A DNA stretch of 62,449 bases, filler included. It is 3 parts of 3 records of this genome, joined end to end, with 100 filler letters (N's around TTAATTAATTAA, not from the genome) between each part and the next. Parts side by side here need not be neighbours in the genome. Positions count along the whole stretch, not along the records: positions 45,597 to 62,449 come from DRR723986_4704; 2 more parts are not named here. The stretch is one strand, 5' to 3'. Below the pieces are notes generated by a model. That model saw only the letters and a list, made by a program, of their open reading frames with translations, was not told the origin of the DNA and did not search any database. Below, one piece after another: positions 20,368-62,449 of this stretch (its first letter is position 1; every line of letters starts with the position of its first letter). The position numbers and the translations under genes were made by a program.

Positions 20368-20936
20368 TCGGAATGGTCGATTGGGCCGCCGCGCGTGCGC
20401 GGATGGTCCTTGCCTTTATCTTACTATCTCTGCTGATAGGTGGTTTTGCCTATGTGAACCTACCCAAAGAAGGTGAGCCGGACATTGAGATTCCAGCGCT
20501 GTTTGTATCGGTTCAGTTTCCGGGCATTTCGGCGGAAGACAGCGAAAGTTTGTTGGTCAAACCAATGGAAACCGAGCTCGCCGATCTCGATGGATTGAAA
20601 AAAATGTCCTCAACTGCGGCCGAAGGCTATGCCGGGGTCGCTTTGGAATTCGAATTCGGGTGGAATAAGACCGCCATCACGGCCGATGTGCGCGATGCGA
20701 TGAACTCTGCCCAGGCCGAGTTTCCCGAAGGCGCTGAACAATACAGCCTGGCAGAGCTTAACTTTTCCGAGTTTCCAATCGTCATCGTCAATCTGACCGG
20801 GGCAGTCCCCGAACGCACCATGGCGCGCATTGCCAAAAACCTGCAGGATGATCTTGAGGCGTTGGATTCAGTGCTAGAGGCGGGCATCGCGGGCAATCGG
20901 GATGAAATGCTCGAAGTGGTGATCGACCCGCTGCGG
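20364..20936 (+). CDS. RND efflux permease (3'-truncated at contig end)
   Basis: LPKEGEPDIEIP ... FPGISAEDSESLLVKPME, AcrB-like N-terminus. Confidence 0.9.
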
Positions 20937-21036
20937 NNNNNNNNNNNNNNNNNNNNNNNNNNNNNNNNNNNNNNNNNNNNTTAATTAATTAANNNNNNNN
21001 NNNNNNNNNNNNNNNNNNNNNNNNNNNNNNNNNNNN
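20937..21036. other. artificial contig-joining spacer
   Basis: N run - TTAATTAATTAA (stops in all frames) - N run. Confidence 0.98.
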
Positions 21037-44589: not shown

Positions 44590-44672
44590 AAAATCAAGGG
44601 ATAACCTGCTGAAACCACTGTGTTTATTGGACTTCTGGCGATCCAGAAGGTACACAAAAGGAACACAGTGCC

Positions 44673-45020
44673 ATGAAATTCTCCAATCAAACCGCCGCTG
44701 CGAATGCTTCCACCATTACCGCAGCATATGATACTAAGCTAGCCGCAGACTCCTACGCGGCTGTGCGTTCTGCATCTACGTTGTACGTGGTTCTCAGGGC
44801 CCCGTGGCGGCGCTTCGCCATCCCGCAGGCATTGGCCATCGTGGGCACCATGGACGAAGCGTGCACGGTACAGGACGCCCTCATTGCTGACGCCGTGCAG
44901 CACATCGGGAACTTTCCAGAGGGCGACTATGAGGTGGCCGCTGAGCGTCTCGTGACGATCATGGATTGGGAGTGGTTCGAAGATGCTCACCATGAGCTTC
45001 TGATGACGCCGACCGCCTAA
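44673..45020 (+). CDS. hypothetical protein
   Basis: 115-aa ORF with AAGGA RBS and a downstream hairpin. Confidence 0.55.
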   Translation: MKFSNQTAAANASTITAAYDTKLAADSYAAVRSASTLYVVLRAPWRRFAIPQALAIVGTMDEACTVQDALIADAVQHIGNFPEGDYEVAAERLVTIMDWEWFEDAHHELLMTPTA

Positions 45021-45040
45021 CCCACCAGCCCAACTCTAAG

Positions 45041-45092
45041 AGCCCTCGAGTTCCACCTGCAACGGGTGGACTCGGGGGCTTCCTTTCGTTTT
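45041..45092 (+). terminator. long hairpin with T-rich tail
   Basis: AGCCCTCGAGTTCCACC-loop-GGTGGACTCGGGGGCT then TCCTTTCGTTTT. Confidence 0.6.
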
Positions 45093-45107
45093 CGGGGAGG
45101 CTACACC

Positions 45108-45482
45108 GTGCGCATGACGATCAAGTATCTACAGCGGAAGGGGAAGAGCCTCCGCTACCGCCGCCGTGTCCGGGAAGACCTAAGGCCGTACTTCGGTGGA
45201 GTCAGAGAGATCACTCGCGGGCTGGGGCTCAGCGTAGGTGAAGAGCACAAGGCACTCGGGCCGATACGGCGCATTGATGCGGATGTGTCCCGGCTCTTCC
45301 TTGAGGCTGAGCGTGCCCTTGCTCGGAAGGACGATCCTGAAACCCTAGCGGCCATCGCTGAGCAGTGGGCGTTGCAAGAGAAGTACATTGGCATTGATCG
45401 CGCTGGCATGGGTGACGGCTCAGCGCAGGAGCACACGCCCTTTGACCAGTGGGTGGATGAACTGATTGTTGATTTCTGCTGA
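45108..45482 (+). pseudogene. DUF6538-like (integrase-associated) protein, apparently truncated by an IS
   Basis: YLQRKGKSLRYRRRVREDLRPYFGGVREITRGLG; GGAGG RBS; last codons and stop come from the IS-like end. Confidence 0.6.
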
Positions 45483-45496
45483 GAACTGACCCGGGG
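45467..45496. mobile_element. terminal inverted repeat of an IS21-family-like element at the contig end
   Basis: TGTTGATTTCTGCTGAGAACTGACCCGGGG resembles IS21-family ends (TGTTGA ... AAYTGACCC); the assembly breaks here. Confidence 0.6.
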
Positions 45497-45596
45497 NNNN
45501 NNNNNNNNNNNNNNNNNNNNNNNNNNNNNNNNNNNNNNNNTTAATTAATTAANNNNNNNNNNNNNNNNNNNNNNNNNNNNNNNNNNNNNNNNNNNN
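45497..45596. other. artificial contig-joining spacer
   Basis: N run - TTAATTAATTAA - N run. Confidence 0.98.
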
Positions 45597-45936
45597 CCCT
45601 CGCGCAGGGCATTACGTTTGATATCTAAAGAGAGGTAGTCGCCAATCCTGTTGCGCCCCAGATCGTGGAAACATGTCTTGGGGCGCAGCAAAACCAGCCC
45701 GCTGCTGAGGTGCAGAATACCCCAATGCACTGAGTCAAAGAGGGGTGACATTTAAGTTTCTATAAATTTCCATTAATTATTCGATATTTGGCTGGGGCTT
45801 GTCAGATGCCCAATTTCAGAGGCATAATTTCCTAAAAGAACAAGTCTTGTGTCGTTCAGGCCCGGTTAGAGGTCACCAAAGAGCAGTTTGGTCGAAGCAA
45901 GCTTAGTTCGAAAAAACGATACAGGCTTTTGGTTCC

Positions 45937-46752
45937 ATGACCACAGAACTTCCCGAGAACATCATCTCGAATGCCTATTCAGGCATGTCCGAACGAAAAA
46001 TTCGGGGTCGCATTCCTGTGTTCATCAATTCCTACAATCAGCTGACCTATTTGCGCGATACCCTTCATTGGTTCTGTCAAAATGGGTTTCGTAACATCAC
46101 GGTGGTGGATAATGAATCCGACCACCCGGATCTATTGGCTTACTTTGAAAGCCGGGCTTTTCAGCGCCGCGCCACCCTGCACCGCATGGGGGTGAATGCC
46201 GGACCGCGCAGAACGTTGCAAAAGATGTCGGCCTTGCCGGAAACCTATGATGGCTTCATTTTTACAGACCCTGATTTGTTGTTGCCAGAAAACCCTGATC
46301 CCATGCTTGTGACCAATATGTTCCGTATCGGGCGTTGGTATCGGCGTCTCAAAGTTGGTCTGGCGCTGGATCTTAACCCTGACTACATCGACATTGATCG
46401 CCGTGTTTACTTGCACCGAACGGTGCAGGAAGTAGAACGGAAGAACTGGAAACGAGAGCTGGAGCCGGGCGTTTTCAAGGCCGTCATAGATACGACCTTT
46501 TTCTTGTATGTGCCGCCTTATGGCCCACACAAGTGTTTCAGTTTACATGGCCGCAGACAAACGCGGCTGCCGTCGATCCGTGTCGCCAAAGAAGGCTATG
46601 CAGCGCTCCACAGACCCTGGTTGAAGGATGGTGATTTAAACGCCTCTGAGCGCAATTATTATACGGACACGGCGTCTAAGGTGTATTCGACAGTGAGTGG
46701 TGCCGCTGCCCTAGAACGTGGCGACACGCATCTCTTGAGACGACAGGCCTGA
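45937..46752 (+). CDS. GT-A fold (GT2-like) glycosyltransferase-like protein
   Basis: PVFINSYN, VVDNES, FTDPD (DxD), KVGLAL, IDTTF, HRPW. Confidence 0.65.
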   Translation: MTTELPENIISNAYSGMSERKIRGRIPVFINSYNQLTYLRDTLHWFCQNGFRNITVVDNESDHPDLLAYFESRAFQRRATLHRMGVNAGPRRTLQKMSALPETYDGFIFTDPDLLLPENPDPMLVTNMFRIGRWYRRLKVGLALDLNPDYIDIDRRVYLHRTVQEVERKNWKRELEPGVFKAVIDTTFFLYVPPYGPHKCFSLHGRRQTRLPSIRVAKEGYAALHRPWLKDGDLNASERNYYTDTASKVYSTVSGAAALERGDTHLLRRQA

Positions 46753-46789
46753 GACCGACTGGACCGGATCGTCCGACATGTCTTGGCTT

Positions 46790-47674
46790 CTAATCGCGTG
46801 TTGATTTCTGGTTTTGTGACACCAGCCAATCTATGACATCTTGGGTTTCGCGGCGCGTCTGTACCCGGTCCCGGCTCTCGACAAAATACCCATGCGTGGG
46901 CGTGATCGTCTCGTTAAACAGACGCATGACACGACCCTCTCTCAGGTCTTGATCGATCAGGGGCAGCCAGCCAACAACCGCCCCTTGGCCTTCGGCAGCG
47001 CCGCGCAATAGAATATTGGCATCTTCAAAAACGGGCCCCCGCAACGGGGTCTTTGGATGCACATCCATCGCGGTAAACCAATCCAGCCATCCCCAATGGT
47101 TGCGCTGGTGTAAAATGGGTTTGTTCAGCAGCTCGGCAGGGTCGTGTATCGGGCCATGCTGTTGAATATAGCCCTCGCTTGCGATGGCCACTGGACGCAG
47201 CTCAAGCAGCTTATCGGCCCGCTCGGGCATGTCTCCCAAACGTTCCCAGCTGATCACGATATCCGCATGGGTCTGATCCCCCATACGTGGGCGATAGGAT
47301 GGCACCACCTCCAGTTCGATCTTGGGATGCTGGTCCCATAGATCGCTGATCCGGGGCATAAGCCAGCGCGCGGTAAAGATGGGCCCCGCCGCAAGGCGTA
47401 CCACCCTGCGCGATGTGCGCCGTAATGCGCGCACCGTATCGTCGAGCATCCCAAACGCTTGCTGGGTGGTGTCCGCCAGACGTCTGCCATCCTCGGTCAG
47501 CGTCACCTCGCGACCAGCCCGTTCAAACAGCTTGACGCCCAGTTGATCCTCAAGCCCGCGAATGTGGTGGCTAATGGCCGTCGGCGTGACGGACAGATGA
47601 TCCGCTGCGGCCCGAAAGCTGCCGCGCTTGGCGGCCGCGTCAAACGCCCGCAGCGCTGAGAGGGAGGGTAACAC
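46790..47674 (-). CDS. LysR-family regulator (GcvA-like)
   Basis: LPSLSALRAFDAAAKRGSFRAAADHLSVTPTAISHHIRGLE HTH; WLMPR. Confidence 0.93.
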   Translation of the reverse strand: MLPSLSALRAFDAAAKRGSFRAAADHLSVTPTAISHHIRGLEDQLGVKLFERAGREVTLTEDGRRLADTTQQAFGMLDDTVRALRRTSRRVVRLAAGPIFTARWLMPRISDLWDQHPKIELEVVPSYRPRMGDQTHADIVISWERLGDMPERADKLLELRPVAIASEGYIQQHGPIHDPAELLNKPILHQRNHWGWLDWFTAMDVHPKTPLRGPVFEDANILLRGAAEGQGAVVGWLPLIDQDLREGRVMRLFNETITPTHGYFVESRDRVQTRRETQDVIDWLVSQNQKSTRD

Positions 47675-47682
47675 ATAAACCT

Positions 47683-47707
47683 CATTGATGAGTTCAACTC
47701 ATCAATG
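47683..47707. promoter_or_regulatory. palindromic LysR-type operator
   Basis: CATTGATGAGTT-C-AACTCATCAATG, perfect 12-bp arms containing T-N11-A, between the divergent LysR gene and operon. Confidence 0.75.
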
Positions 47708-47782
47708 CTTGAGGAATGACCATTTGTAAACTGGCTCTCGTCTTTGCATCGTGGAACAGCAACAAGTTGGACTCATGAGACA

Positions 47783-49327
47783 ATGGCAGCAACAACCCGA
47801 CGGCGAGGCCGCAAGGAACGCCTGATCCAAGCGGATACCCCCGATGATAACCCCCCGGTGTGGCCCGGCGTTTTAGGCGCTCGGCTCAAGCCTTTATCCC
47901 CACAAGAGGTCGCACTGGTCGAAGAAACTGCGCTGTCGTTGCTGGAAACCTTGGGGCTGAGCCAGGCCATTCCCTCCATGATCGAAAAGGTGACTGCCGT
48001 CGGGGGCGCGCTGACCGATGACGGCAGGTTGTTATTCCCGCGCGATCTGGTGCAGGGCGCGATAGAGCGTGCGCAAAGGGGATTTACCCTGTGCGGCCAA
48101 ACCCCTGACCGGGATCTGCGGATCGACGGGGCTCGCGTACATATGTCCACGGGCGGGGCGGCTCCGGGTGTGTTTGACCTTGAAACCGGGGACTATCGGG
48201 ATTCAACGCTGGGCGATCTTTATGATGCGGCCCGCATTGTCGATCAGATGGACAACATCCACCATTTCAGCCGTTCTGTGGTCGCGCGTGATATTCCCGA
48301 CAACGCTGAGATGGATCTTAACACCGCCTATGCCTGCTTGATGGGCACGTCGAAACATGTGTCGATCTCGATCAGTGAACCCGAAAACGTACCCGCCATT
48401 GCTGCGCTATGTTATGCTATTGCCGGCGGCGAAGCAGCGTTTCGCGCCCGTCCGTTCCTGACAGTGATGGTTTGCCATGTGGTGCCACCGATGCGCTTCG
48501 CCGAAGAAGCCTGCGAGGTGTTAGAGGCCGCGATCGAGGCCGGATTTCCGGTTCAATTGATCAGCGCCGGACAGGCAGGGGCCACAAGTCCGGCCACCAT
48601 CGCCGGGTCTTTGGTGCAGGCTGTGGCGGAAACCTTGGCGGGTTTAGTGTTTGCACAGCTGGTCGATCCTGCAGTCAAAGCGATCTTTGCCCCCAAGCCA
48701 CTTGTCGCGGATTTGCGCACGGGGTCGATGTGTGGCGGCGGCGGTGAGCAGGCAATCTTGATGGCAGGGGCGGCGCAGATGGGGCGTCATTTCGATCTGC
48801 CAACCTCGTCCATCGCGGGGATTACCGATTCCAAATGCCTAGATGCGCAATACGGTGCGGAAAAATCGCTTGCGGTGGCCATGGCGGCCCATGCGGGATC
48901 GAACATTGTCACACAGGCTGCTGGCATGCAGGCCAGCCTGCTGGGGGTCAGCCACGCCGCCTATGTCAGTGACAACGATCTGCTCGGAAACATCCTGCGC
49001 ACCATCCGCGGTGTCGAAGCAACGCCAGAAAACATCGCAGCCGACGTGATCGCGCAGGTGTGCCGTGGCCAAGGTCACTATCTGGGTGAAAAACACACCT
49101 TTAATCGTATGAAATCAGACTATTACTACCCCGATATCGGTGATCGCCGCACCCCGCGTGAATGGCAGGAAGACGGGGCAAAACCGATTGGGGATGTCGC
49201 GCGCCATAAGGCACGTGATATCTTAGCCAGTCATTTCCCAACCCACATTCCGGATGACATCGACCGCGCCCTGCGTGCCGGGTTCGACATCCGTCTGACA
49301 CGCGAACAGATCGGCAGATCGGCATGA
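47783..49327 (+). CDS. trimethylamine methyltransferase (MttB/MtgB) family protein, non-pyrrolysine
   Basis: GATSPATIAGSLVQ..AE.LAG, DLRTG, DSK..DAQ.G.EK, GHYLG; no in-frame TAG. Confidence 0.9.
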   Translation: MAATTRRRGRKERLIQADTPDDNPPVWPGVLGARLKPLSPQEVALVEETALSLLETLGLSQAIPSMIEKVTAVGGALTDDGRLLFPRDLVQGAIERAQRGFTLCGQTPDRDLRIDGARVHMSTGGAAPGVFDLETGDYRDSTLGDLYDAARIVDQMDNIHHFSRSVVARDIPDNAEMDLNTAYACLMGTSKHVSISISEPENVPAIAALCYAIAGGEAAFRARPFLTVMVCHVVPPMRFAEEACEVLEAAIEAGFPVQLISAGQAGATSPATIAGSLVQAVAETLAGLVFAQLVDPAVKAIFAPKPLVADLRTGSMCGGGGEQAILMAGAAQMGRHFDLPTSSIAGITDSKCLDAQYGAEKSLAVAMAAHAGSNIVTQAAGMQASLLGVSHAAYVSDNDLLGNILRTIRGVEATPENIAADVIAQVCRGQGHYLGEKHTFNRMKSDYYYPDIGDRRTPREWQEDGAKPIGDVARHKARDILASHFPTHIPDDIDRALRAGFDIRLTREQIGRSA

Positions 49328-50613
49328 CCAACACAGATCTCTCTATACGCAGCCGGGCCGCGCTGCCCGGCGGCGTCAGTCACGAATTGCGATATCGCGC
49401 CCCACATCCCGTCTTTATCGACCACGCCAAGGGCGCGGAAAAATGGGATGTAGAAGGGCGCCGTTACATCGATTTCAAGATGGGATCGGCCAGCCAGATG
49501 CTGGGTCATTGCCACCCCGCCATCGTTGAAGCCATCCAAAAAAAGGCCGAAAGGTCGATCTTTTCCGCAGATTGTCATGCTGCCGAAGCGACGTGGGCGG
49601 AATGGGTCAATCACCTGTATCCTTCGGCAGAGCGCACCCGCTTTACCGCCTCGGGGACCGAAGCCACGATGTTGGCCCTGCGACTGGGGCGGGCATGGTC
49701 GGGTAGGGACCATGTATTGCGCATTGATGGCCATTTTCATGGCTGGCATGACCACGCCTTGAAAGGCGCAAAACCGGGCAGTGATCGGGCCTTGTCGCTT
49801 GGTATTCCGGATACGGTGAATGATCTGATCCATGTGTGCAACCCAGACCCCAAAGCGATGGAAACCGCATTGCAAGACACCCGCATCGGGACGGTTATTA
49901 TCGAGGCATCAGGGGCAAACTATGGCTGTGTGCCGCTTGCAACCGACACCCTGCGCGCCTTGCATGACGTTGCACGCGCCGCTGGGGTGGTGTTGATCTT
50001 TGATGAGATCATTACCGGGTTTCGCTGGTCCCCCGGTGGGCGTCAAGCACGGGATGGGATCGTTCCGGACCTGACCACGCTTGCGAAAACCGTGACCGGC
50101 GGTCTGCCCGGCGGGGCTGTCTGTGGTCGCGCTGAGATCATGGAGCTGATGAACAACGAAACCGAGCGGCAGGGACTTGCTCCCGCCGTCAGCCACAAGG
50201 GGACATTCAATGGCTCCCCATTGGTCGCCGCCGCCGCTTGCGCCGCGATGCCGCTGCTGGCAACGGGCGAGGCACAGGCGCAGGCCGATGCCATGGCAAC
50301 CCGCATGCGTGATGGCATGAACAAGACCCTGTATGACCTTGGCGTCGTCGGTCTGGCCTATGGGGAAAGCTCCATCTTTCATCTGTATTTCGGGCGGAGC
50401 AATCTGGACGGGTTGTCCGCCGCTCAGATCCGCAGCCTGCCCAAGCCACAGGTCAAAGCTTATCGCGATGGGATGTTGAAACATGGCGTTGACCTGATGG
50501 CCTACACCTCTGGCCTGACGTCTGCAGCGCATACCCCAGACCTGATTGACGAGGCGCTGGATGGGTTCCGCGCCACCCTGACCACCATGATCCACAAAGG
50601 AGTGCTGTCATGA
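49324..50613 (+). CDS. class III PLP aminotransferase (GSA-aminomutase-like subgroup)
   Basis: DVEGRRYID, SGTEAT, FHGWHD, FDEIITGFR, AKTVTGGLPGGA, GTFNG. Confidence 0.88.
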   Translation: MTNTDLSIRSRAALPGGVSHELRYRAPHPVFIDHAKGAEKWDVEGRRYIDFKMGSASQMLGHCHPAIVEAIQKKAERSIFSADCHAAEATWAEWVNHLYPSAERTRFTASGTEATMLALRLGRAWSGRDHVLRIDGHFHGWHDHALKGAKPGSDRALSLGIPDTVNDLIHVCNPDPKAMETALQDTRIGTVIIEASGANYGCVPLATDTLRALHDVARAAGVVLIFDEIITGFRWSPGGRQARDGIVPDLTTLAKTVTGGLPGGAVCGRAEIMELMNNETERQGLAPAVSHKGTFNGSPLVAAAACAAMPLLATGEAQAQADAMATRMRDGMNKTLYDLGVVGLAYGESSIFHLYFGRSNLDGLSAAQIRSLPKPQVKAYRDGMLKHGVDLMAYTSGLTSAAHTPDLIDEALDGFRATLTTMIHKGVLS

Positions 50614-53009
50614 CTTTGCCTACGCATGCGCGGACCGTCATCATCGGCGGCGGTGTCATCGGGTGTTCCATCGCCTATCATCTCGCCCGCGAAGGGCGCA
50701 CAGACATCGTTGTTCTGGAACGGTCGAAACTCACCAGCGGAACCACGTGGCATGCCGCCGGACTGGTACGACGATTGCGCCCCTCGGCCACTCTGACCAA
50801 GCTTATCAATTATTCCATTGATCTGTATGGCGAATTGGAACGCGAAACAGGGCAGGCGACCGGGTGGACCCAAACCGGGTCACTGACGCTTGCAACAAAC
50901 CCGGACCGACTGACGAACATCAAACGTCAGGTCTCATTAGGTCGTGCCTTTGGGCTCGAAGCCGAGGTGGTAGATGCCGCCCGCGCCAAAGACCTCTGGC
51001 CGCTGATCGAAGTGGACGATGTGATCGGTGCTGTCTGGTCGCCATCCGATGGTCGGGTCAATCCCTCTGACGTGGCGCTTGCGCTGTCCAAGGGGGCGAA
51101 ATCGCGGGGTGTTCAGATCTTTGAAGACACCGCCGTGACGGGGCTGCAAAAGACAGGCGGTCGGATATCTGGCGTTGAAATCGGGTCGCATGTGATCGAT
51201 GCCGACGAAGTGGTGATCGCTTGCGGGCTGTGGTCACGCGAAGTGGCCGAGATGGCAGGCGCGCACATGCCGCTCTATGCCTGTGAACATTTCTATATTC
51301 TGACCAAACCGCTGGCCGAGGTGCAGGCGCTGGGCAAAGGCGCGCATCTGCCAACGTTGAACGATCAGGATGCATTTCTATACGCCCGCGATGACGTCGA
51401 AGGCTTGCTGGTCGGCTCGTTTGAACCCCATGCCAAGGGGCTGCCAATGAGCCGGTTGCCCGCCGATTTTTCGTTCGACCTGCTCGACGAAGATTGGGAC
51501 CATTTTATGCCCATGATGGAAAACGCATTGCGCCGAATTCCTGCCTTGGAACAGGCCGAGGTCCGTATGTTGCTGAATGGGCCGGAAAGCTTCACGCTGG
51601 ATAGTCAGTTCATGCTTGGCGAAAGCCCCGAAGTGCCCGGCCTGTTTCTGATGGGCGGGATGAACTCGACGGGGATCGCCTTGGCCGGTGGGGCTGGCAA
51701 AGCGATGGCGGAATGGATCATCGCAGGTGAACCCACAATGGAGTTGAACGAGGCTGATATTCGCCGCTTCAGTCCGGAAATGAATGTGCTTGGCGCGCTC
51801 GAGGCGCGTATCCCCGAGGTTCTGGGCCGTCACTACGACAACCCCTATCCGGGCCGATCGATGGAGACGGCACGTGGGCAACGCCGGTCCCCGATCCATA
51901 CCGGGCTTGTCGCCGCTGGTGCGCGATTTGAGGCGCGCGGTGGATGGGAACGGGTCGTACACTTTGGCGGTGAAAACGTACATTTACCGCTTAGCTTCGG
52001 TATCCCAGCGTGGCGCGCCCAAGTCGAGCAAGAGGTCGAGGTGTGCAAAACCGGTGCCGCCATTCTGGACCAAAGTGCCTTTGGCAAGATCATGGTGCAG
52101 GGGCCTGATGCCTGTGCGTTTCTCAATCACCTGTGCGCGGCCCAGATGGATATCGCACCGGGCCGCATTGCCTATACGCAGATCTTGAACGCGCAAGGCG
52201 GCGTGGAAAGCGACCTGACCGTGCAGCGGCACGGGGCGGACTGCTATCTGCTTGTTGTAGGCGCTGCTGAGGTCGTTCGCGTGCTTAAGCGGATGCGGGA
52301 AACCAAAGGTGCTCATCATGTTGAATTCACGGATGTGACCAGCGGCTACGCCATCCTCGGCTTGGCTGGGGCGGACGCCAAACGTGTTTTGCAAGCGACC
52401 ACAAATGTGCCCCTGCCTGCGTTAAAGCGGTTCCAGTTTGCACCGTTTGAAATCGGTCTTGCGCGCTGTTGGGTTGGGAAACTGTCGTTTACCGGCGAAG
52501 AGGGGTACGAGTTGTACATCCCATCCGACATGGCCATGGCCGCACACGAGGCGCTTGTCGCTGCCGGTGCCTCGCACGCCGGGCTGTATGCCAGCGGCAG
52601 CCTGCGGATCGAAAGCGGATATCGCGCGTTTGGGCATGAACTGTCCCCCGGTACAACACCGCAAGAGGCGGGTCTGGGTGCGTTCTGTGCCTTTGGAACA
52701 GGATTTGTTGGCGAAGAGGCAGTCAAGGGTCGGGCCGTCAATCGCCGCATTGTGTCGATCCTGTTTGACGACCCGGATGCAATCCCGATCCACGATGAAC
52801 CGATCTATTTCGACGGGCAGGTCGTTGGACAGATTACCTCAGCGGCGTGGAGCTATCGCTTTGGCCGCTCGGTCGCGCTTGCGATGGTCACCGCGCCTTT
52901 GGATCAGTTGGACACAAACACCGTTGTGGATGGGTTTGAGGTGGAAATCGCCTGCACCCGCTTCAGTGCAAAAGCTTCACTCAAACCCGCAAAGGAGGCG
53001 TTCGCATGA
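50610..53009 (+). CDS. FAD-dependent oxidoreductase with GcvT domain (dimethylglycine/sarcosine dehydrogenase-like)
   Basis: IIGGGVIG, SGTTWHAAG, NGPESFT, GWER, FTGEEGYE, LRIESGY. Confidence 0.92.
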   Translation: MTLPTHARTVIIGGGVIGCSIAYHLAREGRTDIVVLERSKLTSGTTWHAAGLVRRLRPSATLTKLINYSIDLYGELERETGQATGWTQTGSLTLATNPDRLTNIKRQVSLGRAFGLEAEVVDAARAKDLWPLIEVDDVIGAVWSPSDGRVNPSDVALALSKGAKSRGVQIFEDTAVTGLQKTGGRISGVEIGSHVIDADEVVIACGLWSREVAEMAGAHMPLYACEHFYILTKPLAEVQALGKGAHLPTLNDQDAFLYARDDVEGLLVGSFEPHAKGLPMSRLPADFSFDLLDEDWDHFMPMMENALRRIPALEQAEVRMLLNGPESFTLDSQFMLGESPEVPGLFLMGGMNSTGIALAGGAGKAMAEWIIAGEPTMELNEADIRRFSPEMNVLGALEARIPEVLGRHYDNPYPGRSMETARGQRRSPIHTGLVAAGARFEARGGWERVVHFGGENVHLPLSFGIPAWRAQVEQEVEVCKTGAAILDQSAFGKIMVQGPDACAFLNHLCAAQMDIAPGRIAYTQILNAQGGVESDLTVQRHGADCYLLVVGAAEVVRVLKRMRETKGAHHVEFTDVTSGYAILGLAGADAKRVLQATTNVPLPALKRFQFAPFEIGLARCWVGKLSFTGEEGYELYIPSDMAMAAHEALVAAGASHAGLYASGSLRIESGYRAFGHELSPGTTPQEAGLGAFCAFGTGFVGEEAVKGRAVNRRIVSILFDDPDAIPIHDEPIYFDGQVVGQITSAAWSYRFGRSVALAMVTAPLDQLDTNTVVDGFEVEIACTRFSAKASLKPAKEAFA

Positions 53010-55417
53010 GCGAGGTCACCCGAACCACTCAGGTCGCGATCATTGGCGGGGGTATCATGGGTGTCGCCGCCCAATTCCAACTGGCCGAAAACGGCTGGAC
53101 CGATAGCATCCTGTTTGAAAAGGCCGAACTGACCAGCGGCTCGACATGGCACGCGGCGGGGCAGATTGCCCATGCGGTGGGCAGTCGGGTGATGGGCTGG
53201 ATCAACAAAACATCGATCGAGACCTACAAACGGGTTGAAAAAGAGACCGGGCAAAGCATTGGCTGGCACGAGGTCGGAGGCCTACGCATTGCCACGACAG
53301 ATGCCGAAGTCGACTGGATGAAATCGATCATGGGGGTGGGTAAACTCTTGGACCTGCCAATGGATCTGGTCGGCCCGGAAGAAGTGGCAAAAGCCAATCC
53401 GTTCTACAAGGTCGATGACGTAAAGGCGGCGATCCACACGCATGCAGACGGGCATATCGACCCCTCGGGTGTGACCATGGCGCTGGCGGCGGCGACGCGT
53501 GCACGGGGCGCTGTGATTGAGCGGAACAACCGCGTTATCGGGGCTTCTCGCAAGGGGGACATGTGGCTGCTGAAAACCGAAAAGGGCGATGTGCTGGCCG
53601 AGCATGTTGTCATCGCAGCCGGGTCTTATGCCAATCAGGTTGGCGAATGGTTTGGGCTCAAAATCCCCAGCGTGTCCTGCCTGCACCACTATCTGGTCAC
53701 CGACACAGTCCCCGAATTCGAAGGGCGCCCGGAATTGCCCGTGATGCGGGACAATGCCTTTGGTGGGTATATCCGGCAGGAACAGAAATCTGGGCTGATC
53801 GGTATTTATGAGGGCCATGTCTGCCCCACCGTTTGGGAAATGCCCAAAGGTGCACCTTGGGCGGCTGAGAACGAGTTGTTTCAGGCGGATTACGACTCGA
53901 TCGGTGACTTTCTCATGGTGGCGTTCGACAAAATGCCAATTCTGGCCGAGCTAGGGATTAAGCGCGTCGTGCGTGGTGCGATCACCCATACGCCGGATGG
54001 CGGGATGTTGGTTGGCCCATCTGGCGCGCCGAATGTCTGGCTGTCTTGCGGGTCGTCCATCGGGCTGGCCTGGGGCGGCGGCGCTGGCAAAGTGTTGGCG
54101 GATTGGATGGTGCACGGCGAGACCGACATCAACACACGTGGGTTCGATCCCCGGCGGTACGGCGACTTTGCGAGCGATACGTTCATCGTGGAGCGCACCA
54201 AAGATGAATTCATGCGCCGCCACGATACGCCCAGTCCGGGGCAGCAGTTCCACAGCTTGCGCCCGTTGAAACGTCACCCGCTGTATGATCGTCTCGCCGC
54301 CAAAGGTGCGGCGTTTGGCGAAATCTCAGGATGGGAACGCCCCCGGTACTTTGGCGCGATTGGTGAGGTCGAACAGATCGGATGGGGGCACCAGTCTTGG
54401 CATGAAAACGCTATGGCCGAGGCAAAAGCCACCCGCTCTGCTGCGGGGGTGATTGATCTCTGTGCTTTTGCGCAATTCGAAATCAGCGGCAAGGATGCAG
54501 GCGCTGTTTTGGATCGTCTTTCAGCCAATCGCATCCCATCCAAGGACGGGCGGATGAGCCTGAACCATTTGCTGACGGACCATGGCAAGTTCGAAACTGA
54601 AATCACCATCTGGCGCATGGCTGAGGATCGGTATTTCACCGGCTCCCCGATTGCGCGTGCCACCCCAGATTTTGAATGGATCAAATCGCATATTCGGGAT
54701 GGCGAAAGCGTTCAGATGATCAATCGCTCGGGCGATTGGGGCATGTTGGCCATGTCCGGTCCAGCGTCGCGTCGCATTCTGTCAGAGCTGACGGATGTTG
54801 ATCTGACGAACAAAGCATTCCCATGGCTATCGGGTCAAGAAATCACCGTGGCAGGGATTGATTGCTATGCGTTGCGGGTTTCGTTTGTGGGTGAGCTGGG
54901 CTGGGAACTGCACGCGCCGCTGGATCAGATTGGCGCGCTGTATGACGCGCTGTTTGTGGCGGGGGAACCGCATGGCTTAACCGATATCGGGTCTTATGCC
55001 TTCAATGGGATGCGTATGGAAAAAGCATATCGCGCCAGTGGCGAATTGACCACGGATGTTGGCCCGTTGGACGTTGGATTGGACCGCTTTGTCGCCAGCG
55101 AAGGGCGTGAGTTCACAGGGCGTGAGACGCTGCTCAACCGCAAGCCAGACTGGGAGCTATTCTACGCCGAGCTCCATGCCGATGACATCGATATCCACGG
55201 CGGCGAACCTGTTTTGTTGAATGGGGTACCGGTCGGTCTGACCACGTCAGGTGGGTATGGGTACACAATCGGAAAATCTTTGGGCTGGTTGTTTGTGCGC
55301 AAAGGCACGCCGCCCACTGGCTTGAGTGTTCAAATCCAGAACCGCGATATTCCCGTGACTGTTCACCCCGATGCCCTGTTTGACCCCGAAAACCACTGCC
55401 CCCGATCCGAGGACTGA
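53006..55417 (+). CDS. second FAD-dependent oxidoreductase with GcvT domain (dimethylglycine dehydrogenase-like)
   Basis: IIGGGIMG, SGSTWHAAG, DGHIDP, GWERP, SFVGELGWE, MRMEKAY. Confidence 0.92.
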   Translation: MSEVTRTTQVAIIGGGIMGVAAQFQLAENGWTDSILFEKAELTSGSTWHAAGQIAHAVGSRVMGWINKTSIETYKRVEKETGQSIGWHEVGGLRIATTDAEVDWMKSIMGVGKLLDLPMDLVGPEEVAKANPFYKVDDVKAAIHTHADGHIDPSGVTMALAAATRARGAVIERNNRVIGASRKGDMWLLKTEKGDVLAEHVVIAAGSYANQVGEWFGLKIPSVSCLHHYLVTDTVPEFEGRPELPVMRDNAFGGYIRQEQKSGLIGIYEGHVCPTVWEMPKGAPWAAENELFQADYDSIGDFLMVAFDKMPILAELGIKRVVRGAITHTPDGGMLVGPSGAPNVWLSCGSSIGLAWGGGAGKVLADWMVHGETDINTRGFDPRRYGDFASDTFIVERTKDEFMRRHDTPSPGQQFHSLRPLKRHPLYDRLAAKGAAFGEISGWERPRYFGAIGEVEQIGWGHQSWHENAMAEAKATRSAAGVIDLCAFAQFEISGKDAGAVLDRLSANRIPSKDGRMSLNHLLTDHGKFETEITIWRMAEDRYFTGSPIARATPDFEWIKSHIRDGESVQMINRSGDWGMLAMSGPASRRILSELTDVDLTNKAFPWLSGQEITVAGIDCYALRVSFVGELGWELHAPLDQIGALYDALFVAGEPHGLTDIGSYAFNGMRMEKAYRASGELTTDVGPLDVGLDRFVASEGREFTGRETLLNRKPDWELFYAELHADDIDIHGGEPVLLNGVPVGLTTSGGYGYTIGKSLGWLFVRKGTPPTGLSVQIQNRDIPVTVHPDALFDPENHCPRSED

Positions 55418-55422
55418 AAATC

Positions 55423-57093
55423 ATGACAACTATCAATGGCGGCGAAGCCGTATACCGCGTCCTAAAGGCCAACGGCATCGACACGGTGTTTGGCCTGTTG
55501 GGCGGGTCGATGCTGGAACTCTACGATGCGATGTATCAAGGGGGAGAGATCGCCTATGTCGGTGCGCGGGATGAACGCGCCGCCGGGCACATGGCGGATG
55601 CATGGGCCCGGATGACGGGCAAACCGGGTGTGGTTTTGGGGGCGCAAGCTGGACCCGGCGTGGTGAATATTGTGACCGCAGTGGCCGAGGCACAGCTGGC
55701 GTATTCGCCGCTTGTGGTGATCGCAGGTGCGATTACCCGGTCGGATCAGTGCAAGGATACGTTTCAGGAAATCGATCAGGTTGCGTTGTTCGCGCCGATT
55801 TCAAAGCGAACGGTCATGGTCACCGACCCATCGCGGTTGGTGCCCATGCTCGAAGATGCGATCCGGCTTGCCAATACAGGCCGACGCGGTCCTGTGGTGC
55901 TGCATATCCCGCGGGATCTGTTTGCCACGGATATCCCCGAGGTTACGCCACAGCCGGTGAACATCGCCCGCTCCGGTCCCGCCGCGCCATCTGATGTGGA
56001 GGCTATGGCCGATCTTTTGGCCCAAGCGGAACGCCCGGTGATCTTTGCCGGGGGTGGTTTTAAATGGGGCGCTGGGCGGCAGGCGCTGACGGCGTTAGCT
56101 GAAAGGCTTGAGGTTCCTGTCGTGGCCTCGACCGGACACGCGGATGTAATGTGTCACGGTCACCCTTGGTTTGCAGGGCAGGCAGGACCGCGTGGCAATC
56201 GAGTGGCCAGTCGTTTGACGAAAGAAGCCGACGTTATGGTCGTGCTGGGCGCGCGTCTGGGTTTCAATTCGACCTTTCATTCCAATGATTATGTTGGGGC
56301 AGACACGCGCATCGCCCATGTAGATATCGAAGGATCAGCGGTGGGCCGTTATTTCCCGGCCGAGATCGCAGCGCAGGGGGATGCCCGTCTGACCGCCGAG
56401 GCGCTGACCAAGGTTGCCACGCGCCCGTCATGTGATGATTGGCGCGCGGCGTTTCAGGCGGATGTGGCCAGCCTTACCGCTGAGCGAGAGGTCGAAGCGG
56501 CGATTGAAACGCTGCCGACACATCCGCGCCGGGCTTTGGCTGAAATTCGCGTGACATTGCCCAAAGACGCGATTGTAACGTTGGACACCGGCAACACATG
56601 TCTGCAGGCCGCTGATCGCTTGGCGCACTATGCGCCGATGTCGCTGATCACACCGTTGGATTTTGGTCTCGTGGGGTTTGGGCTGGCTGCGGCCATCGGT
56701 GCCAAAGCAGCGGCGCCCCAGCGGCCCGTTGTTGCAATCATGGGCGACGGCGCCGTTGGGTATACGATGATCGAAATCCAGACCGCCATTCAGAACAATT
56801 TGCCCATCGTGTTGATCGTTTTGGACAATCAGGCCTGGGGGGCTGAGAAAGCGTATCAGCAAGAATTCTATGGTGGCCGTCTGCTGGGGGCGGAAATTCA
56901 ATCCCCTCGCTATGACAAGTTCGCCGAACTGTGTGGCGGCAAAGGGATCTGGGTTGATGGACCGGGGGGCATGGGCCCGGCGCTTGAGGCCGCTTTTGCG
57001 TCGAATGAGACCACCGTCATTCAAACCCGGATTGATCCCGGCGCGCTGATGACATTGCGCAAGGATTTGTTCAAAGCACCACAGAAAGACTGA
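55423..57093 (+). CDS. ThDP-dependent enzyme, sulfoacetaldehyde acetyltransferase (Xsc)-like / ALS superfamily
   Basis: RDE..AGHMAD, AQAGPGVVN, FQEIDQ, IPRD, GDGA ... NQAWGAEK. Confidence 0.82.
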   Translation: MTTINGGEAVYRVLKANGIDTVFGLLGGSMLELYDAMYQGGEIAYVGARDERAAGHMADAWARMTGKPGVVLGAQAGPGVVNIVTAVAEAQLAYSPLVVIAGAITRSDQCKDTFQEIDQVALFAPISKRTVMVTDPSRLVPMLEDAIRLANTGRRGPVVLHIPRDLFATDIPEVTPQPVNIARSGPAAPSDVEAMADLLAQAERPVIFAGGGFKWGAGRQALTALAERLEVPVVASTGHADVMCHGHPWFAGQAGPRGNRVASRLTKEADVMVVLGARLGFNSTFHSNDYVGADTRIAHVDIEGSAVGRYFPAEIAAQGDARLTAEALTKVATRPSCDDWRAAFQADVASLTAEREVEAAIETLPTHPRRALAEIRVTLPKDAIVTLDTGNTCLQAADRLAHYAPMSLITPLDFGLVGFGLAAAIGAKAAAPQRPVVAIMGDGAVGYTMIEIQTAIQNNLPIVLIVLDNQAWGAEKAYQQEFYGGRLLGAEIQSPRYDKFAELCGGKGIWVDGPGGMGPALEAAFASNETTVIQTRIDPGALMTLRKDLFKAPQKD

Positions 57094-57098
57094 GAGAT

Positions 57099-57130
57099 CA
57101 GCGATCCGAGGCCAACGCCTCGGATCGCTG
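57099..57130. terminator. hairpin between convergent genes
   Basis: CAGCGATCCGAGGC-caac-GCCTCGGATCGCTG, perfect 14-bp stem 5 nt after the stop; no U-tract. Confidence 0.65.
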
Positions 57131-57175
57131 CAATGTGCGTTTTGGCCGTCCCAAACGGATGTTCGGCAGGGCGGT

Positions 57176-57883
57176 TTAAACCGAACGGGTGATGCCGCCG
57201 TCGACTCGAATGTTCTGCCCTGTGATATAGGCGCCGCCCTCTGACGCGAGGAATCCGACGGTGGCCGCGATCTCGTCATAGGATTTGCCGTATCGACCCA
57301 TCGGGATCTTAGCTTTGAAATCAGCGTTTTCTGGCAGGCTGTCGATAAAGCCCGGCAGAACGTTATTCATGCGGACGTTGTCAGCGGCGTATTTGTCCGA
57401 GAACAGTTTCGAGAAAGCAGCCAAGCCTGCGCGCATCACGCCAGAGGTGGGGAAAACCGGGTCGGGTTCAAAGGCTGCAAAGGTGGAAATGTTGATGATC
57501 GTTCCCGATTTTTGCGCAATCATGATTGGCGCAACCAGACGGGTTGGCCGGACCGCATTCAGGAAATAGACGTCCATGCCCACGTGCCAATCCTCATCGG
57601 TTAGCTCCAACACCGGCGCGCGCGGGCCGTGCCCGGCAGAGTTGACCAGCACATCGATACGCCCCCATTTTTCCATGGTGGCATCGACCAAGCGGGTCAG
57701 GTCGGCGTTTGATTGATTTGATCCTGTGATGCCAATGCCGCCCAACTCTGCTGCCAAAGCCTCGCCCTTGCCTGAGGAGGATAGGATGGCAACTTTGAAC
57801 CCATCTGCGGCCAACCTGCGTGCGCTGTCTGCCCCCATGCCACTGCCACCGGCCGTGATAATCGCTACTTTTGTGTCAGCCAT
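57176..57883 (-). CDS. SDR-family oxidoreductase (atypical active site)
   Basis: TAGGSGMG, NSAG, VLPGFID, ITGQNIRVDGG; SGVMR where YxxxK is expected. Confidence 0.88.
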   Translation of the reverse strand: MADTKVAIITAGGSGMGADSARRLAADGFKVAILSSSGKGEALAAELGGIGITGSNQSNADLTRLVDATMEKWGRIDVLVNSAGHGPRAPVLELTDEDWHVGMDVYFLNAVRPTRLVAPIMIAQKSGTIINISTFAAFEPDPVFPTSGVMRAGLAAFSKLFSDKYAADNVRMNNVLPGFIDSLPENADFKAKIPMGRYGKSYDEIAATVGFLASEGGAYITGQNIRVDGGITRSV

Positions 57884-57970
57884 GTCTATCTCCGTTGATG
57901 CTAAGCGTGCTTCGGTGCCTAACTTGCGCCCGTTTCGCGGCTTTGACCAATCAGTAATTCTGCGTTATTC

Positions 57971-57985
57971 CTGTAGAAAAACTAT
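57971..57985. promoter_or_regulatory. possible LysR-type site between divergent SDR and LysR genes
   Basis: CTGTAG-AAAAA-CTAT imperfect dyad. Confidence 0.35.
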
Positions 57986-58004
57986 TACCTGTAGGAGCCT
58001 TCTA

Positions 58005-58907
58005 TTGCGCGACATGCCGCCGCTCAACTCATTGAAAGCGTTCGAAGCCTCGGGGCGACACCTGAATTTCAGCCGCGCGGCGCAGGAACTGGGGGTGACG
58101 CAGGGGGCAATTGCGCAACATGTGCGCGCGCTTGAGGCCCTGTTGAAGCTCAAACTGTTTGATCGTCACGCGCGGGGCCTGTCTTTGACCGATGAGGGGC
58201 GGCGATACCTTACGCCAGTGCGCCGTGCTTTTGATTTGATTGCTGAGGCTACAGAAAACCTCTCTCCTCGGGCGGCTGTGGTAACCATCAGCACAACACC
58301 GTCTTTTGCCACGAAATGGCTGGTGCCGCGCCTTGGGGTATTTTCAGATGAATACCCTGATATCCGGGTCCGGCTTGATGCCTCGAACACGTTGTCCAAC
58401 TTTCAAACCGATGGCGTGGACATTGCAATTCGGCAAGGAACACCGCCGTTTGGGCCGGGCTTGGTTGCAGAGCCTCTTTTTGCGTCCGACGTGATTGCGG
58501 TGTGCCATCCCGATCTGTGCAGGGGGCGGTATCCGATCGCTGCCGTTCAGGATTTGCGCCATCATGTGCTGCTTGAGGACACGCACGGGCGGTGGCCCTT
58601 GTTTCTTGAAAAAGCGCTGGGTGACAGGTCGGATACAGAGATAAGAACCACAACGTTCAGTCAAACATCGCTGGCGATTGATGCAGCACTTGCGGGGCAG
58701 GGGGTTGCCCTGACCAACCGCGCGTTTGTCGATGCAGATCTTAAGGCGAACCGCCTGTGTCAGCCGTTCCCGTTTTCGATAACCACGGATGAGGGGTTTT
58801 ATACCGTCGCGCCGCGCGCACCGCGCGACCCTGCTATCGTGTCTGATGTGCGACAGTGGCTGGCCCGTCAGATCCGTGATGACAACCAAGGCCGCACTAG
58901 GTCGTAA
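58005..58907 (+). CDS. LysR-family regulator (GcvA-like)
   Basis: MPPLNSLKAFEASGRHLNFSRAAQELGVTQGA HTH; start TTG 58005 after AGGAG (or ATG 58014). Confidence 0.92.
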   Translation: MRDMPPLNSLKAFEASGRHLNFSRAAQELGVTQGAIAQHVRALEALLKLKLFDRHARGLSLTDEGRRYLTPVRRAFDLIAEATENLSPRAAVVTISTTPSFATKWLVPRLGVFSDEYPDIRVRLDASNTLSNFQTDGVDIAIRQGTPPFGPGLVAEPLFASDVIAVCHPDLCRGRYPIAAVQDLRHHVLLEDTHGRWPLFLEKALGDRSDTEIRTTTFSQTSLAIDAALAGQGVALTNRAFVDADLKANRLCQPFPFSITTDEGFYTVAPRAPRDPAIVSDVRQWLARQIRDDNQGRTRS

Positions 58908-58941
58908 AGGGCGAGGTGCAGAATATGCAGGTGACCGGTCG

Positions 58942-60102
58942 CTACCGCGCGCCTGCCAGCTTGTGGCCCAGTTTTTCCAGCACCGTCAGGCATTGGGCCA
59001 ATTGATCGAGCGCCAGATATTCATCCGCTTTGTGCGCCTGATTGATCGACCCGGGCCCACAGACGACGACATCCATCCCAAGGGATTGGAAAATACCCGC
59101 CTCTGTTCCGAAGGGAACCAGATCTGTACCATTCGCCCCGGTGAGTTCTAGCATGATTTGCCGGGCTTCGTTTACATCTGTTGGGACAAGGCCGGCAACC
59201 TCGCCAATCACCTCGGTCTCGATGGTGGCATCTGGATGCACCCGGCGCATTGCAGGCAACAAAACGTCGTCGCAATAGCGGGTCATGGCGTCTTTGACAA
59301 AATCCGCATCCGAGGTTTGCACAGGGCGCATTTCCCAGTCAATCTGTGCCTTGGGTGGGATCACATTATGCACGCTGCCACTGTGGAGTGCGCCGACATT
59401 GATGGTGGTCCAAGGTGGTTCAAAGCGGCTGGTTTCCGGGGCCATGCCTTGCAGCCGGTCGCGCAGGTCCAGCAATCGCGACACATAGCGCACGGCGTAT
59501 TCGGCGGCATTTACCCCAAGATCCGGGGCCGATCCGTGCCCCTCAAGCCCTTGAAACCGTGTGGTATATTCACAGCAGCCTTTGTGCCCCTCAATAATTC
59601 GCATGCTTGTGGGTTCGCCGATGATTGCCAACCGCGGTTTGATTTCGCGTGCGATAAGGGATTTGGCCAATTGACCCGCGCCGATACAGCCCGTTTCCTC
59701 ATCATAAGTAAATGCAAAATGCACAGGCCTGTCCTGCACCTGTTTCGCGAATGTCGGGGCCATGGCCAAGGTCGCGGCGATGAACCCTTTCATGTCGCAG
59801 GTGCCGCGCCCGTACAGACGCCCGTCGCGTTCAGTCATCACAAATGGATCAGTGGTCCAATCCTGATCGCTGACCGGGACAACATCGCTGTGACCTGACA
59901 ACACGATGCCCCCGTCGCAGTCCGGCCCAAGCGTGGCAAACAGGTTGGCTTTGCGTCCCGTCTCATCCGTCTGAATGTCGACCTTGGCCCCGCACCCTGC
60001 GAGACGATCCGCCAGATAGGCGATCATCTCGAGGTTGCTGTCCGCTGACACCGTTGGAAAGGCGATCAGGTCGGACAGGATGCGCTTGGTGTCTTCGATC
60101 AT
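58942..60102 (-). CDS. argE: acetylornithine deacetylase (ArgE/M20) family protein
   Basis: SGHSDVVP, GRGTCDMKGF, YDEE, GEPT, HKG, AHKADE. Confidence 0.88.
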   Translation of the reverse strand: MIEDTKRILSDLIAFPTVSADSNLEMIAYLADRLAGCGAKVDIQTDETGRKANLFATLGPDCDGGIVLSGHSDVVPVSDQDWTTDPFVMTERDGRLYGRGTCDMKGFIAATLAMAPTFAKQVQDRPVHFAFTYDEETGCIGAGQLAKSLIAREIKPRLAIIGEPTSMRIIEGHKGCCEYTTRFQGLEGHGSAPDLGVNAAEYAVRYVSRLLDLRDRLQGMAPETSRFEPPWTTINVGALHSGSVHNVIPPKAQIDWEMRPVQTSDADFVKDAMTRYCDDVLLPAMRRVHPDATIETEVIGEVAGLVPTDVNEARQIMLELTGANGTDLVPFGTEAGIFQSLGMDVVVCGPGSINQAHKADEYLALDQLAQCLTVLEKLGHKLAGAR

Positions 60103-60105
60103 CTC

Positions 60106-61290
60106 TTAGCCTTTGACAAACAGCTTGCGCTCAACATTGCACAGGGGCTCTGCTGCGCCAGTGTCGTTGATCAGAATGGTTTCGGTGGTTTCCAATCCCC
60201 AGCTGTCCATCCAAAGGGCAGGCATGAAATGGAACACCATGCCCGGCACCAATTCGGTTTCATCTTCGCTGCGGATGGATGCGGTGCGTTCGCCCCAGTC
60301 GGGCGGGTAGCTGAGCCCGATAGGATAGCCCATGCGGCCCGTGCGTTCGATCCCATGCTTGGCGATGACCTGCATAAAGGCATTTGCGATATCGCAGGTG
60401 CGATTGCCCGCACGCGCCGCCTCTAACCCGGCGTTGATGCCTTCGATCTGGGCCTCTTCTGCGCGGCGCATCTCATCCGAGGGGGTGCCCAGAAAAATGG
60501 TTCGACAAATCGGCGCATGATATCGGCGATAGCAGCCCGACAGTTCAAAAAACGTGGCTTCGCCTTCGCGCATGGGCGTACCGTTCCATGTCAGGTGGGC
60601 GGCAGTCGCGTCCAGACCAGACGGCGTCAGGGGAACGATGGCGGGGTAATCGCCCCAATCATCATCAACACCAGTGATCCCGGCATGCATGATATCTGCG
60701 ACCAGATCATTTTTGCGTACCCCCGGTGCGGCGCGGTCCATGGCGGTGTGGATCACCTTTTCTGAGATGCGGGCGGCCTTTCGAATAAAACCGATTTCGT
60801 CGTCTGATTTGATCAGGCGTTGCCAATTCACCAATGCGGTTGCATCCACCAGCGACGCATTTGGCAGCTCTTCGGCCAAGACCGCGTGGGCCTTGGCCGA
60901 GTAGTAGTAGTTTTCCATTTCCACGCCGATGCGCGCCTGTGCCAGCCCCCGCGACGCGAGCTGCTGCGCCAAATCCTGCATCGGGTGAACGACAGTGGAT
61001 TGTATATAGTGATCGCCGTACCCAAGGATGTTTTCGTGTGCCATCCAGCAGGTGCGGCGACCGCCCATCATATCCATGTAACGACCCCACCAGATGGGTT
61101 CGCCTTCCACGGTGAGGATCACGCCTTGGTGCACATAAAAGGACCACCCGTCATACCCGGTGAGCCAAGCTTGGTTGGATGGGTCTGTCACAAACAGCGC
61201 ATCCAGACCCGCAGCCGCCATGGCGGCGCGGGTCTTTTTCAATCTGCGGTCATATTCAGCAAGGCCAAAAGGCGCATTGGACGTGGTCAT
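60106..61290 (-). CDS. doeA: ectoine hydrolase (DoeA/EutD; M24 fold)
   Basis: WLTGYDGWSFYVHQ, LVNWQR..KS, GDYPAIVPL, AAHLTW, YPPDWGE. Confidence 0.85.
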   Translation of the reverse strand: MTTSNAPFGLAEYDRRLKKTRAAMAAAGLDALFVTDPSNQAWLTGYDGWSFYVHQGVILTVEGEPIWWGRYMDMMGGRRTCWMAHENILGYGDHYIQSTVVHPMQDLAQQLASRGLAQARIGVEMENYYYSAKAHAVLAEELPNASLVDATALVNWQRLIKSDDEIGFIRKAARISEKVIHTAMDRAAPGVRKNDLVADIMHAGITGVDDDWGDYPAIVPLTPSGLDATAAHLTWNGTPMREGEATFFELSGCYRRYHAPICRTIFLGTPSDEMRRAEEAQIEGINAGLEAARAGNRTCDIANAFMQVIAKHGIERTGRMGYPIGLSYPPDWGERTASIRSEDETELVPGMVFHFMPALWMDSWGLETTETILINDTGAAEPLCNVERKLFVKG

Positions 61291-61311
61291 GGGGTGGCTC
61301 CTTTTGTGATG

Positions 61312-62448: not shown

Positions 62449-62449
62449 C

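Follow-up and report, generated by a model that had tools for sequence, protein, structure and literature searches.

Marine algae, invertebrates and bacteria exchange much of their carbon, nitrogen and energy in the form of methylated amines. Which of these amines, if any, is consumed by an operon that joins an MttB-superfamily protein, a class III aminotransferase, two flavoenzymes of the dimethylglycine dehydrogenase (DMGDH) family and a thiamine diphosphate (ThDP) enzyme? The operon, from a marine bacterium of the Roseobacter type, lies within the part at positions 45,597-62,449 (DRR723986_4704) of the window, by which is meant the whole stretch of 62,449 nucleotides (nt) that was analysed, composed of three parts that are joined with 100-N fillers and are not necessarily neighbours in the genome. 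The genes of the window were taken from a listing of open reading frames (ORFs) and then scanned with Pfam and NCBIfam profiles, and the pathway steps were derived from families and synteny.

The favoured reading, with a probability of about 0.5, takes the locus for a catabolic operon that is controlled by LysR, moves horizontally between genomes and serves a methylated amine. The amine, probably quaternary, would be demethylated, deaminated and passed to a ThDP-dependent step. A preliminary description of the locus had proposed a stepwise catabolic route for a methylated amine, possibly an N-methyltaurine-type sulfonate. The stepwise route is likely, in view of a conserved unit and a fitting parts list; the sulfonate is not supported.

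A conserved gene set with a divergent regulator

The operon begins with a divergent member of the non-pyrrolysine MttB superfamily (47744-49327; PF06253, 467.7 bits), whose probable start is the ATG at 47783 according to an alignment of orthologous upstream regions. On the same plus strand follow a class III pyridoxal phosphate aminotransferase that resembles glutamate-1-semialdehyde aminomutase (GSAM) and D-phenylglycine aminotransferase (49324-50613; Aminotran_3, 164 bits), the two DMGDH-family flavin adenine dinucleotide (FAD)/tetrahydrofolate dehydrogenases DH1 (50610-53009) and DH2 (53006-55417), both with DAO, FAO_M, GCV_T and GCV_T_C domains, and a ThDP enzyme with TPP_enzyme_N, M and C domains (55423-57093), which belongs to a distinct clade that is sister to sulfoacetaldehyde acetyltransferase (Xsc). 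The junction sequences contain ATGA overlaps at 49324, 50610 and 53006 and a gap of 5 nt at 55418-55422, and ORFs, junctions and family scans together confirm the five co-oriented, closely spaced genes of the preliminary description. The proposed boundaries, an upstream palindrome and a downstream hairpin, were both verified as perfect inverted repeats, in addition to a divergent LysR gene. The hairpin (57099-57130, plus strand) has 14 perfect base pairs, starts 5 nt past the ThDP stop codon and folds with an energy of -28.8 kcal/mol; it lacks a T-run and a simple terminator scan made no call there, and it likely marks the operon end. Family scans of the window also agree that the operon includes neither a transporter nor a corrinoid protein.

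The conservation of this gene set was analysed by scanning the ThDP protein against one genome per species, which yielded 72 distinct loci with 75-97% ThDP identity. Of these, 61 contain the complete set of five core genes; order and strand are identical in 59 of the 61, the MttB gene being located downstream in the other two. For ten of the 11 incomplete loci no judgement can be made, as the contig extends less than 6.2 kb beyond the ThDP gene on its upstream side. The synteny check across related genomes has in this way borne out the genes as a conserved unit. By their NCBI labels, which may be imperfect for metagenome-assembled genomes, 47 loci belong to Roseobacteraceae, 14 to Paracoccaceae, four to Gammaproteobacteria, two to Rhizobiaceae, two to Rhodospirillales and a few to other groups. 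In the family of G001, the closest related genome that was searched, only 13 of the 401 sampled genomes have an orthologue. Since this rare and patchy set keeps more than 80% identity across classes, the distribution points to horizontal spread of the operon between bacterial classes. The flanks vary between loci and include tripartite ATP-independent periplasmic (TRAP), tripartite tricarboxylate (TTT) and Liv-type ATP-binding cassette (ABC) transporters as well as transposases; a conserved transporter was found neither in the flanks of about 20 loci nor up to 16 kb further upstream in four genomes.

The divergent regulator (46790-47674, minus strand; HTH_1, 78.8 bits; LysR_substrate, 76.6 bits) is GcvA-like, with GcvA as its best NCBIfam match at 228.6 bits, under the cut-off of 288. 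An orthologue is found at the same place and in divergent orientation in 37 of the 72 loci. Nine nt from the LysR start codon lies the putative operator, a perfect palindrome of 25 nt (47683-47707) with fully complementary (100%) arms of 12 nt (47683-47694 and 47696-47707). It contains a LysR box of the T-N11-A type with the core ATGAG-N5-CTCAT, so that the two regulator domains, the divergent arrangement and a T-N11-A repeat between the genes come together as in LysR-type divergent operons. Among 35 orthologous intergenic regions the core is exact in 13; in 28 neither arm has more than one mismatch, although about three of these copies are off-register. The divergent LysR gene and the conserved operator core support the regulated unit that had been proposed under LysR control. 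A second intergenic element, the box CCATTTGTAAA (47720-47730, plus strand), is even more constant, with TTTGTA[AT]A in 33 of the 35 regions; it is a candidate promoter element or second regulator site. In addition, a small palindrome, CTCATGAG, at 47772-47779 repeats the CTCAT half-site of the operator just 5' of the probable MttB start, and CTCATGA recurs in many orthologous upstream regions.

The enzymes of the operon

The MttB homologue covers positions 1-490 of the 500 of the PF06253 profile in an ORF without internal stop, and the pyrrolysine position of MttB aligns to its Ile360. The whole-length match without an in-frame amber codon places it among the non-pyrrolysine members. It shares the PF06253 fold, the lack of pyrrolysine and the expected corrinoid methyl transfer with MtgB, MtcB, MtpB, MtyB and MthB; the characterised non-pyrrolysine proteins act on acidic quaternary amines with R312, whereas Ser or Thr is found at this site here (PMC13080624, PMC12155760). 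MtgB binds glycine betaine through cation-pi contacts of Y97 and F356 and through R312 and H348 to the carboxylate, and R312 is reported to be kept in every member whose function is known, the substrates of these being acidic quaternary amines throughout (PMC13080624). In a gap-free HMMER alignment to MtgB structures, Y97, R312, H348 and F356 correspond to G138, S355, Q391 and L399 of the window protein, which thus has neither the Arg312 salt bridge (S355) nor the Y97/F356 aromatic pair (G138, L399). The same four positions read GSQL in 46, GTQL in four and GTLI in three of 53 orthologues, with Ser or Thr at the R312 site in 53 of 53. In G001, nine other MttB paralogues, to which the window protein is only 21-23% identical, keep the basic residue plus His, and two paralogues that are 42-47% identical share the residue loss; the latter two stand alone beside unrelated genes, and their contexts are uninformative. 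The true trimethylamine methyltransferase, whose substrate is non-acidic, has Tyr at the R312 position. The losses argue against glycine betaine as substrate and, with less weight, against acidic compounds in general, among them sulfonates, phosphonates and phosphate esters. Since the acid-binding Arg of all characterised relatives is missing, the substrate is possibly a non-acidic amine, for example of the choline type, rather than a betaine, sulfonate or phosphonate.

A methyltransferase of this kind would need a corrinoid partner, and family scans detected none within the window. Five related genomes that carry the operon have 8-21 MTTB matches each and exactly one B12-binding_2 match each, in an open frame of 247-352 amino acids (aa). 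In Ruegeria pomeroyi and Phaeobacter inhibens, methionine synthesis and betaine demethylation share one MtgC/MtgD module, and the up to seven MtgB-like ORFs per genome were suggested to act on further methylated compounds (PMC12478193). Since the five related genomes show this shared stand-alone arrangement, an operon that lacks a corrinoid gene of its own would be nothing unusual.

The middle of the operon is composed of more familiar families. The best solved relative of the aminotransferase is D-phenylglycine aminotransferase (244 bits), and it scores below the cut-offs of the GSAM (HemL) models (275.8 against 398 and 263.2 against 527.3). Its orthologues fall into two types, about 72-95% and about 58-62% identical, and the second type goes with enlarged operons in the inspected loci. 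DH1 and DH2 have the four-domain FAD and folate architecture of the dimethylglycine and sarcosine dehydrogenases of choline and betaine catabolism, and DMGDH is the best solved relative of both (412 bits for DH1, 492 bits for DH2). Both contain the motif SG(T/S)TWHAAG, which we take to be the covalent flavin site. Unlike those dehydrogenases, they are two mutually distant paralogues, 30% identical to each other, with substrates that are not assigned by family models; no NCBIfam model exceeded its cut-off for either.

The ThDP enzyme, with a GDG-X25-DN motif at residue 441, had been described as Xsc-like and as possibly acting in the breakdown of a sulfonate. Its best NCBIfam matches are indeed two Xsc models, but both scores are far below the cut-offs (NF005713, 404.1 against 620; TIGR03457, 391.1 against 676.4), and the next match is acetolactate synthase with 356 bits. 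All five related genomes encode a canonical Xsc (895-1015 bits) at another place, whereas their operon orthologues score 381-395 bits, and the operon enzyme is about 31% identical to the canonical Xsc. In a likelihood tree of 30 rows that included the other ThDP paralogues of the five genomes, the operon enzymes did not fall inside the Xsc clade; they formed a separate sister clade with a support of 90 in the approximate likelihood ratio test (SH-aLRT) and stems of 1.44 and 2.09 changes per site, in a quick search with several long branches. A library of 1.84 billion representatives contains, as the next relatives over the full length, proteins that are only 39-44% identical and have no informative names. 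On these sequence comparisons the enzyme is assigned to a distinct family whose nearest characterised relative, Xsc, is distant, and it is Xsc-like in a loose sense only, with no support for the sulfonate.

The nearest outgroup of the ThDP enzyme, which is 42-45% identical and represented by a 90% cluster with 1952 members, was observed at three loci (L123-L125), always beside an alpha/beta hydrolase. One of them (L123) also contains an OpuAC-type ABC system, an aldehyde dehydrogenase (ALDH), a luciferase-like monooxygenase and a LysR gene. These contexts may belong to another quaternary-amine pathway and name no substrate.

A second architecture connects the two end enzymes of the operon. At five loci (L126-L130), members of the same MttB subgroup (51-68% identical) and of the same ThDP clade (58-69%) flank one flavoenzyme of 649 aa, an iron-sulfur protein of the FadH/old yellow enzyme type, which replaces the aminotransferase and both DMGDH-type enzymes. 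Starts and stops of the triad overlap or abut, and a divergent LysR gene is present in two of three annotated flanks (L129 and L130). Because the MttB/ThDP pair recurs around a different middle enzyme, the recurrence would couple both end enzymes functionally, and it suggests that the middle enzymes may convert the MttB product into the ThDP substrate. An assignment of the flavoenzyme to the trimethylamine dehydrogenase type was considered and rejected, as the search of solved structures favours dienoyl-CoA reductase.

A proposed pathway and its rivals

In the proposed pathway, the MttB homologue would pass one methyl group to a single shared corrinoid protein of the MtgC type, whose gene would lie outside the operon, and the methyl group would go on to tetrahydrofolate. 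DH1 and DH2 would take off the remaining two N-methyl groups as methylene-tetrahydrofolate, the class III aminotransferase would turn the resulting primary amine into an aldehyde or ketone, and the ThDP enzyme would convert this carbonyl product. By analogy with Xsc, the last step could lead from a 2-substituted acetaldehyde to an acyl phosphate or acyl product. A close known counterpart is the MtgBCD(E) system of roseobacters, a cobalamin-dependent glycine betaine demethylase and split methionine synthase in which the MttB-superfamily module is likewise apart from a single shared corrinoid protein, a methyl-cobalamin:tetrahydrofolate methyltransferase takes part and DMGDH-type enzymes act downstream, again in aerobic marine Alphaproteobacteria (PMC12478193). 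The present system differs from it in an MttB homologue that lacks Y97, R312, H348 and F356 and shares an operon with an aminotransferase and a ThDP enzyme. The earlier statement that no operon of such composition has been characterised agrees with searches of the open-access literature, which found no description of this gene set or of the catabolism of methylated taurines; Dataset S2 in the supplement of PMC12478193 might list these paralogues.

Several observations weigh against this reading. The MttB subgroup is without a characterised member, and the protein may be no quaternary-amine methyltransferase at all, because all four known substrate-binding residues are lost. The aminotransferase could act on an amino acid instead of a terminal amine, in which case the ThDP enzyme would be a 2-oxo-acid decarboxylase. 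In Ruegeria atlantica HKCCD9103 (L024) the aminotransferase gene is absent and the MttB gene is directly followed by DH1. Operon variants contain accessory genes that are unexplained by the simple scheme: an ALDH of the aminobutyraldehyde/betaine-aldehyde type after the MttB gene (12 of 72 loci), an amidase ahead of the ThDP gene (7 of 72), and after the ThDP gene a TcuA-like flavoprotein of one type (20 of 72) or of a second type (9 of 72) that comes with a TcuB-like partner. The triad flavoenzyme is no proof of an amine-to-aldehyde step either, since it matches dienoyl-CoA reductase with 279 bits but histamine and trimethylamine dehydrogenase with only 161-171 bits.

One specific route that would fit the missing Arg starts from a non-acidic quaternary amine, for which choline is the leading candidate, and leads via ethanolamine and glycolaldehyde to acetyl phosphate, avoiding glycine betaine. 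The Arg-less MttB-type enzyme would take choline directly, the two DMGDH-type enzymes would yield ethanolamine, the aminotransferase would give glycolaldehyde, and the ThDP enzyme, as a natural 'acetyl-phosphate synthase' with chemistry of the Xsc/phosphoketolase type, would dehydrate it to acetyl phosphate. EutB was found in none of the five related genomes, so these have no known ethanolamine lyase, which fits such a route. On the other side, all five encode BetA for choline; they would therefore not need a second choline route, even if one could exist, and the proposal is tentative and of low probability.

Doubtful to a greater degree is an amino-acid-type substrate with a distant methylated nitrogen, such as N-epsilon-trimethyllysine. 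The order would be aminotransferase, decarboxylation of the 2-oxo acid by the ThDP enzyme, ALDH, and demethylation of the resulting omega-betaine by the MttB homologue, DH1 and DH2, following the logic of the arginine transaminase pathway. In its favour, D-phenylglycine aminotransferase, to which the aminotransferase is most similar among solved structures, acts on an alpha-amino acid, the ALDH inserted in 12 loci is of a suitable type, a net-cationic substrate fits the missing Arg, and the TcuA-like dehydrogenase could act on a dicarboxylate end product. The operon of the window itself, however, contains no ALDH, its ThDP enzyme groups with Xsc, apart from the AruI-like decarboxylases that these genomes also encode, a linked transporter of the lysine type is lacking, and the scheme is pure inference. 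It is unlikely, too, that the parts list is misleading, in the sense that the MttB homologue is no methyltransferase of the pathway or that the five gene products serve different substrates. The uncharacterised subgroup with its lost binding residues and the two solitary subgroup members of G001 would permit this; the translational coupling, the order conserved in 59 of 61 loci and the recurrence of the MttB/ThDP pairing in the second architecture speak for a joint function.

Two further routes appear very improbable. Conversion of taurine betaine or N-methyltaurine to taurine, sulfoacetaldehyde and, by an Xsc-type enzyme, acetyl phosphate and sulfite would make use of three methyl-removing enzymes for a trimethylated nitrogen, and the Xsc models are the top NCBIfam matches of the ThDP enzyme, for which Xsc is the nearest clade among the ThDP paralogues of the five genomes. 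The succession of class III aminotransferase and ThDP enzyme is also that of the taurine pathway Tpa-Xsc-Pta. Yet the identity of about 31% to a canonical Xsc that itself scores at least 895 bits in five of five genomes, the scores below both Xsc cut-offs and the long separate stems in the tree speak against an Xsc function. The aminotransferase has no NCBIfam match of the taurine-pyruvate type, and in contrast to the Tpa-Xsc-Pta pathway no Pta, sulfite exporter or sulfite dehydrogenase gene lies in or abuts the operon among the annotated flanking ORFs. Since a sulfonate is acidic, Ser at the R312 site, in place of the Arg that binds acidic groups and is tied to acidic substrates, counts against a taurine-type substrate, and the suggestion of taurine betaine is not supported. 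Equally improbable is ordinary catabolism of glycine betaine via dimethylglycine, sarcosine, glycine and glyoxylate, followed by a condensation as in glyoxylate carboligase. The relation of DH1 and DH2 to DMGDH and the GcvA-like regulator would suit it, but all four glycine-betaine-binding residues of MtgB are replaced, whereas the nine other G001 paralogues keep the basic pair, and glyoxylate carboligase is a weaker match of the ThDP enzyme (176 bits) than acetolactate synthase (235 bits).

Surroundings and significance

Five loci (L010, L013, L022, L041 and L044) suggest that methyl-amine genes are gathered in islands, as the operon has in its vicinity an extra MttB homologue of about 44% identity, a third gene of the DMGDH type, or both. 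In the window, the operon is adjoined at 57176-62424 by a cluster of the ectoine-degradation type. It comprises, on the minus strand, a short-chain dehydrogenase/reductase (57176-57883), DoeB, which is acetylornithine-deacetylase-like (58942-60102), a DoeA-like ectoine hydrolase (60106-61290; 574 bits, just below the cut-off of 613) and a class III aminotransferase that runs off the window (61312-62424), and on the plus strand a second GcvA-like LysR gene at about 58020-58907. The cluster adjoins the operon only in L001 and L023, and the ectoine genes were therefore rejected as part of the system.

The stretch at 44600-46790, which borders the LysR gene on the left, has a guanine plus cytosine fraction of 0.49-0.53, compared to 0.58-0.65 around it, and may represent foreign DNA or the scar of an insertion. 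Its three ORFs at 44673-45020, 45066-45482 and 45937-46752 have no Pfam or NCBIfam matches, and an ORF of 271 aa from the low-GC stretch is common only to L001 and L023. Further off, a BCCT betaine/carnitine/choline transporter (1590-3089) and a TauE/SafE-family membrane protein (6424-7191) are encoded 40-45 kb away in the window, with no link to the operon shown. At 20364-20984, after an HlyD-type gene, an ORF of 206 aa matches the first approximately 190 of the 1021 positions of the AcrB/AcrD/AcrF profile and only these, and may be what a truncation has left of an efflux pump gene.

In aerobic marine bacteria, demethylation that depends on cobalamin and continues with DMGDH-type enzymes is of a known kind; new are the two uncharacterised enzyme clades that are joined to it here. 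The operon, which is rare yet very well conserved, marks an unassigned branch of cobalamin-dependent methyl-amine catabolism. If its substrate were identified, many of the orphan MttB paralogues, of which a roseobacter genome has 8-21, would gain a function, and new ThDP chemistry might come to light.

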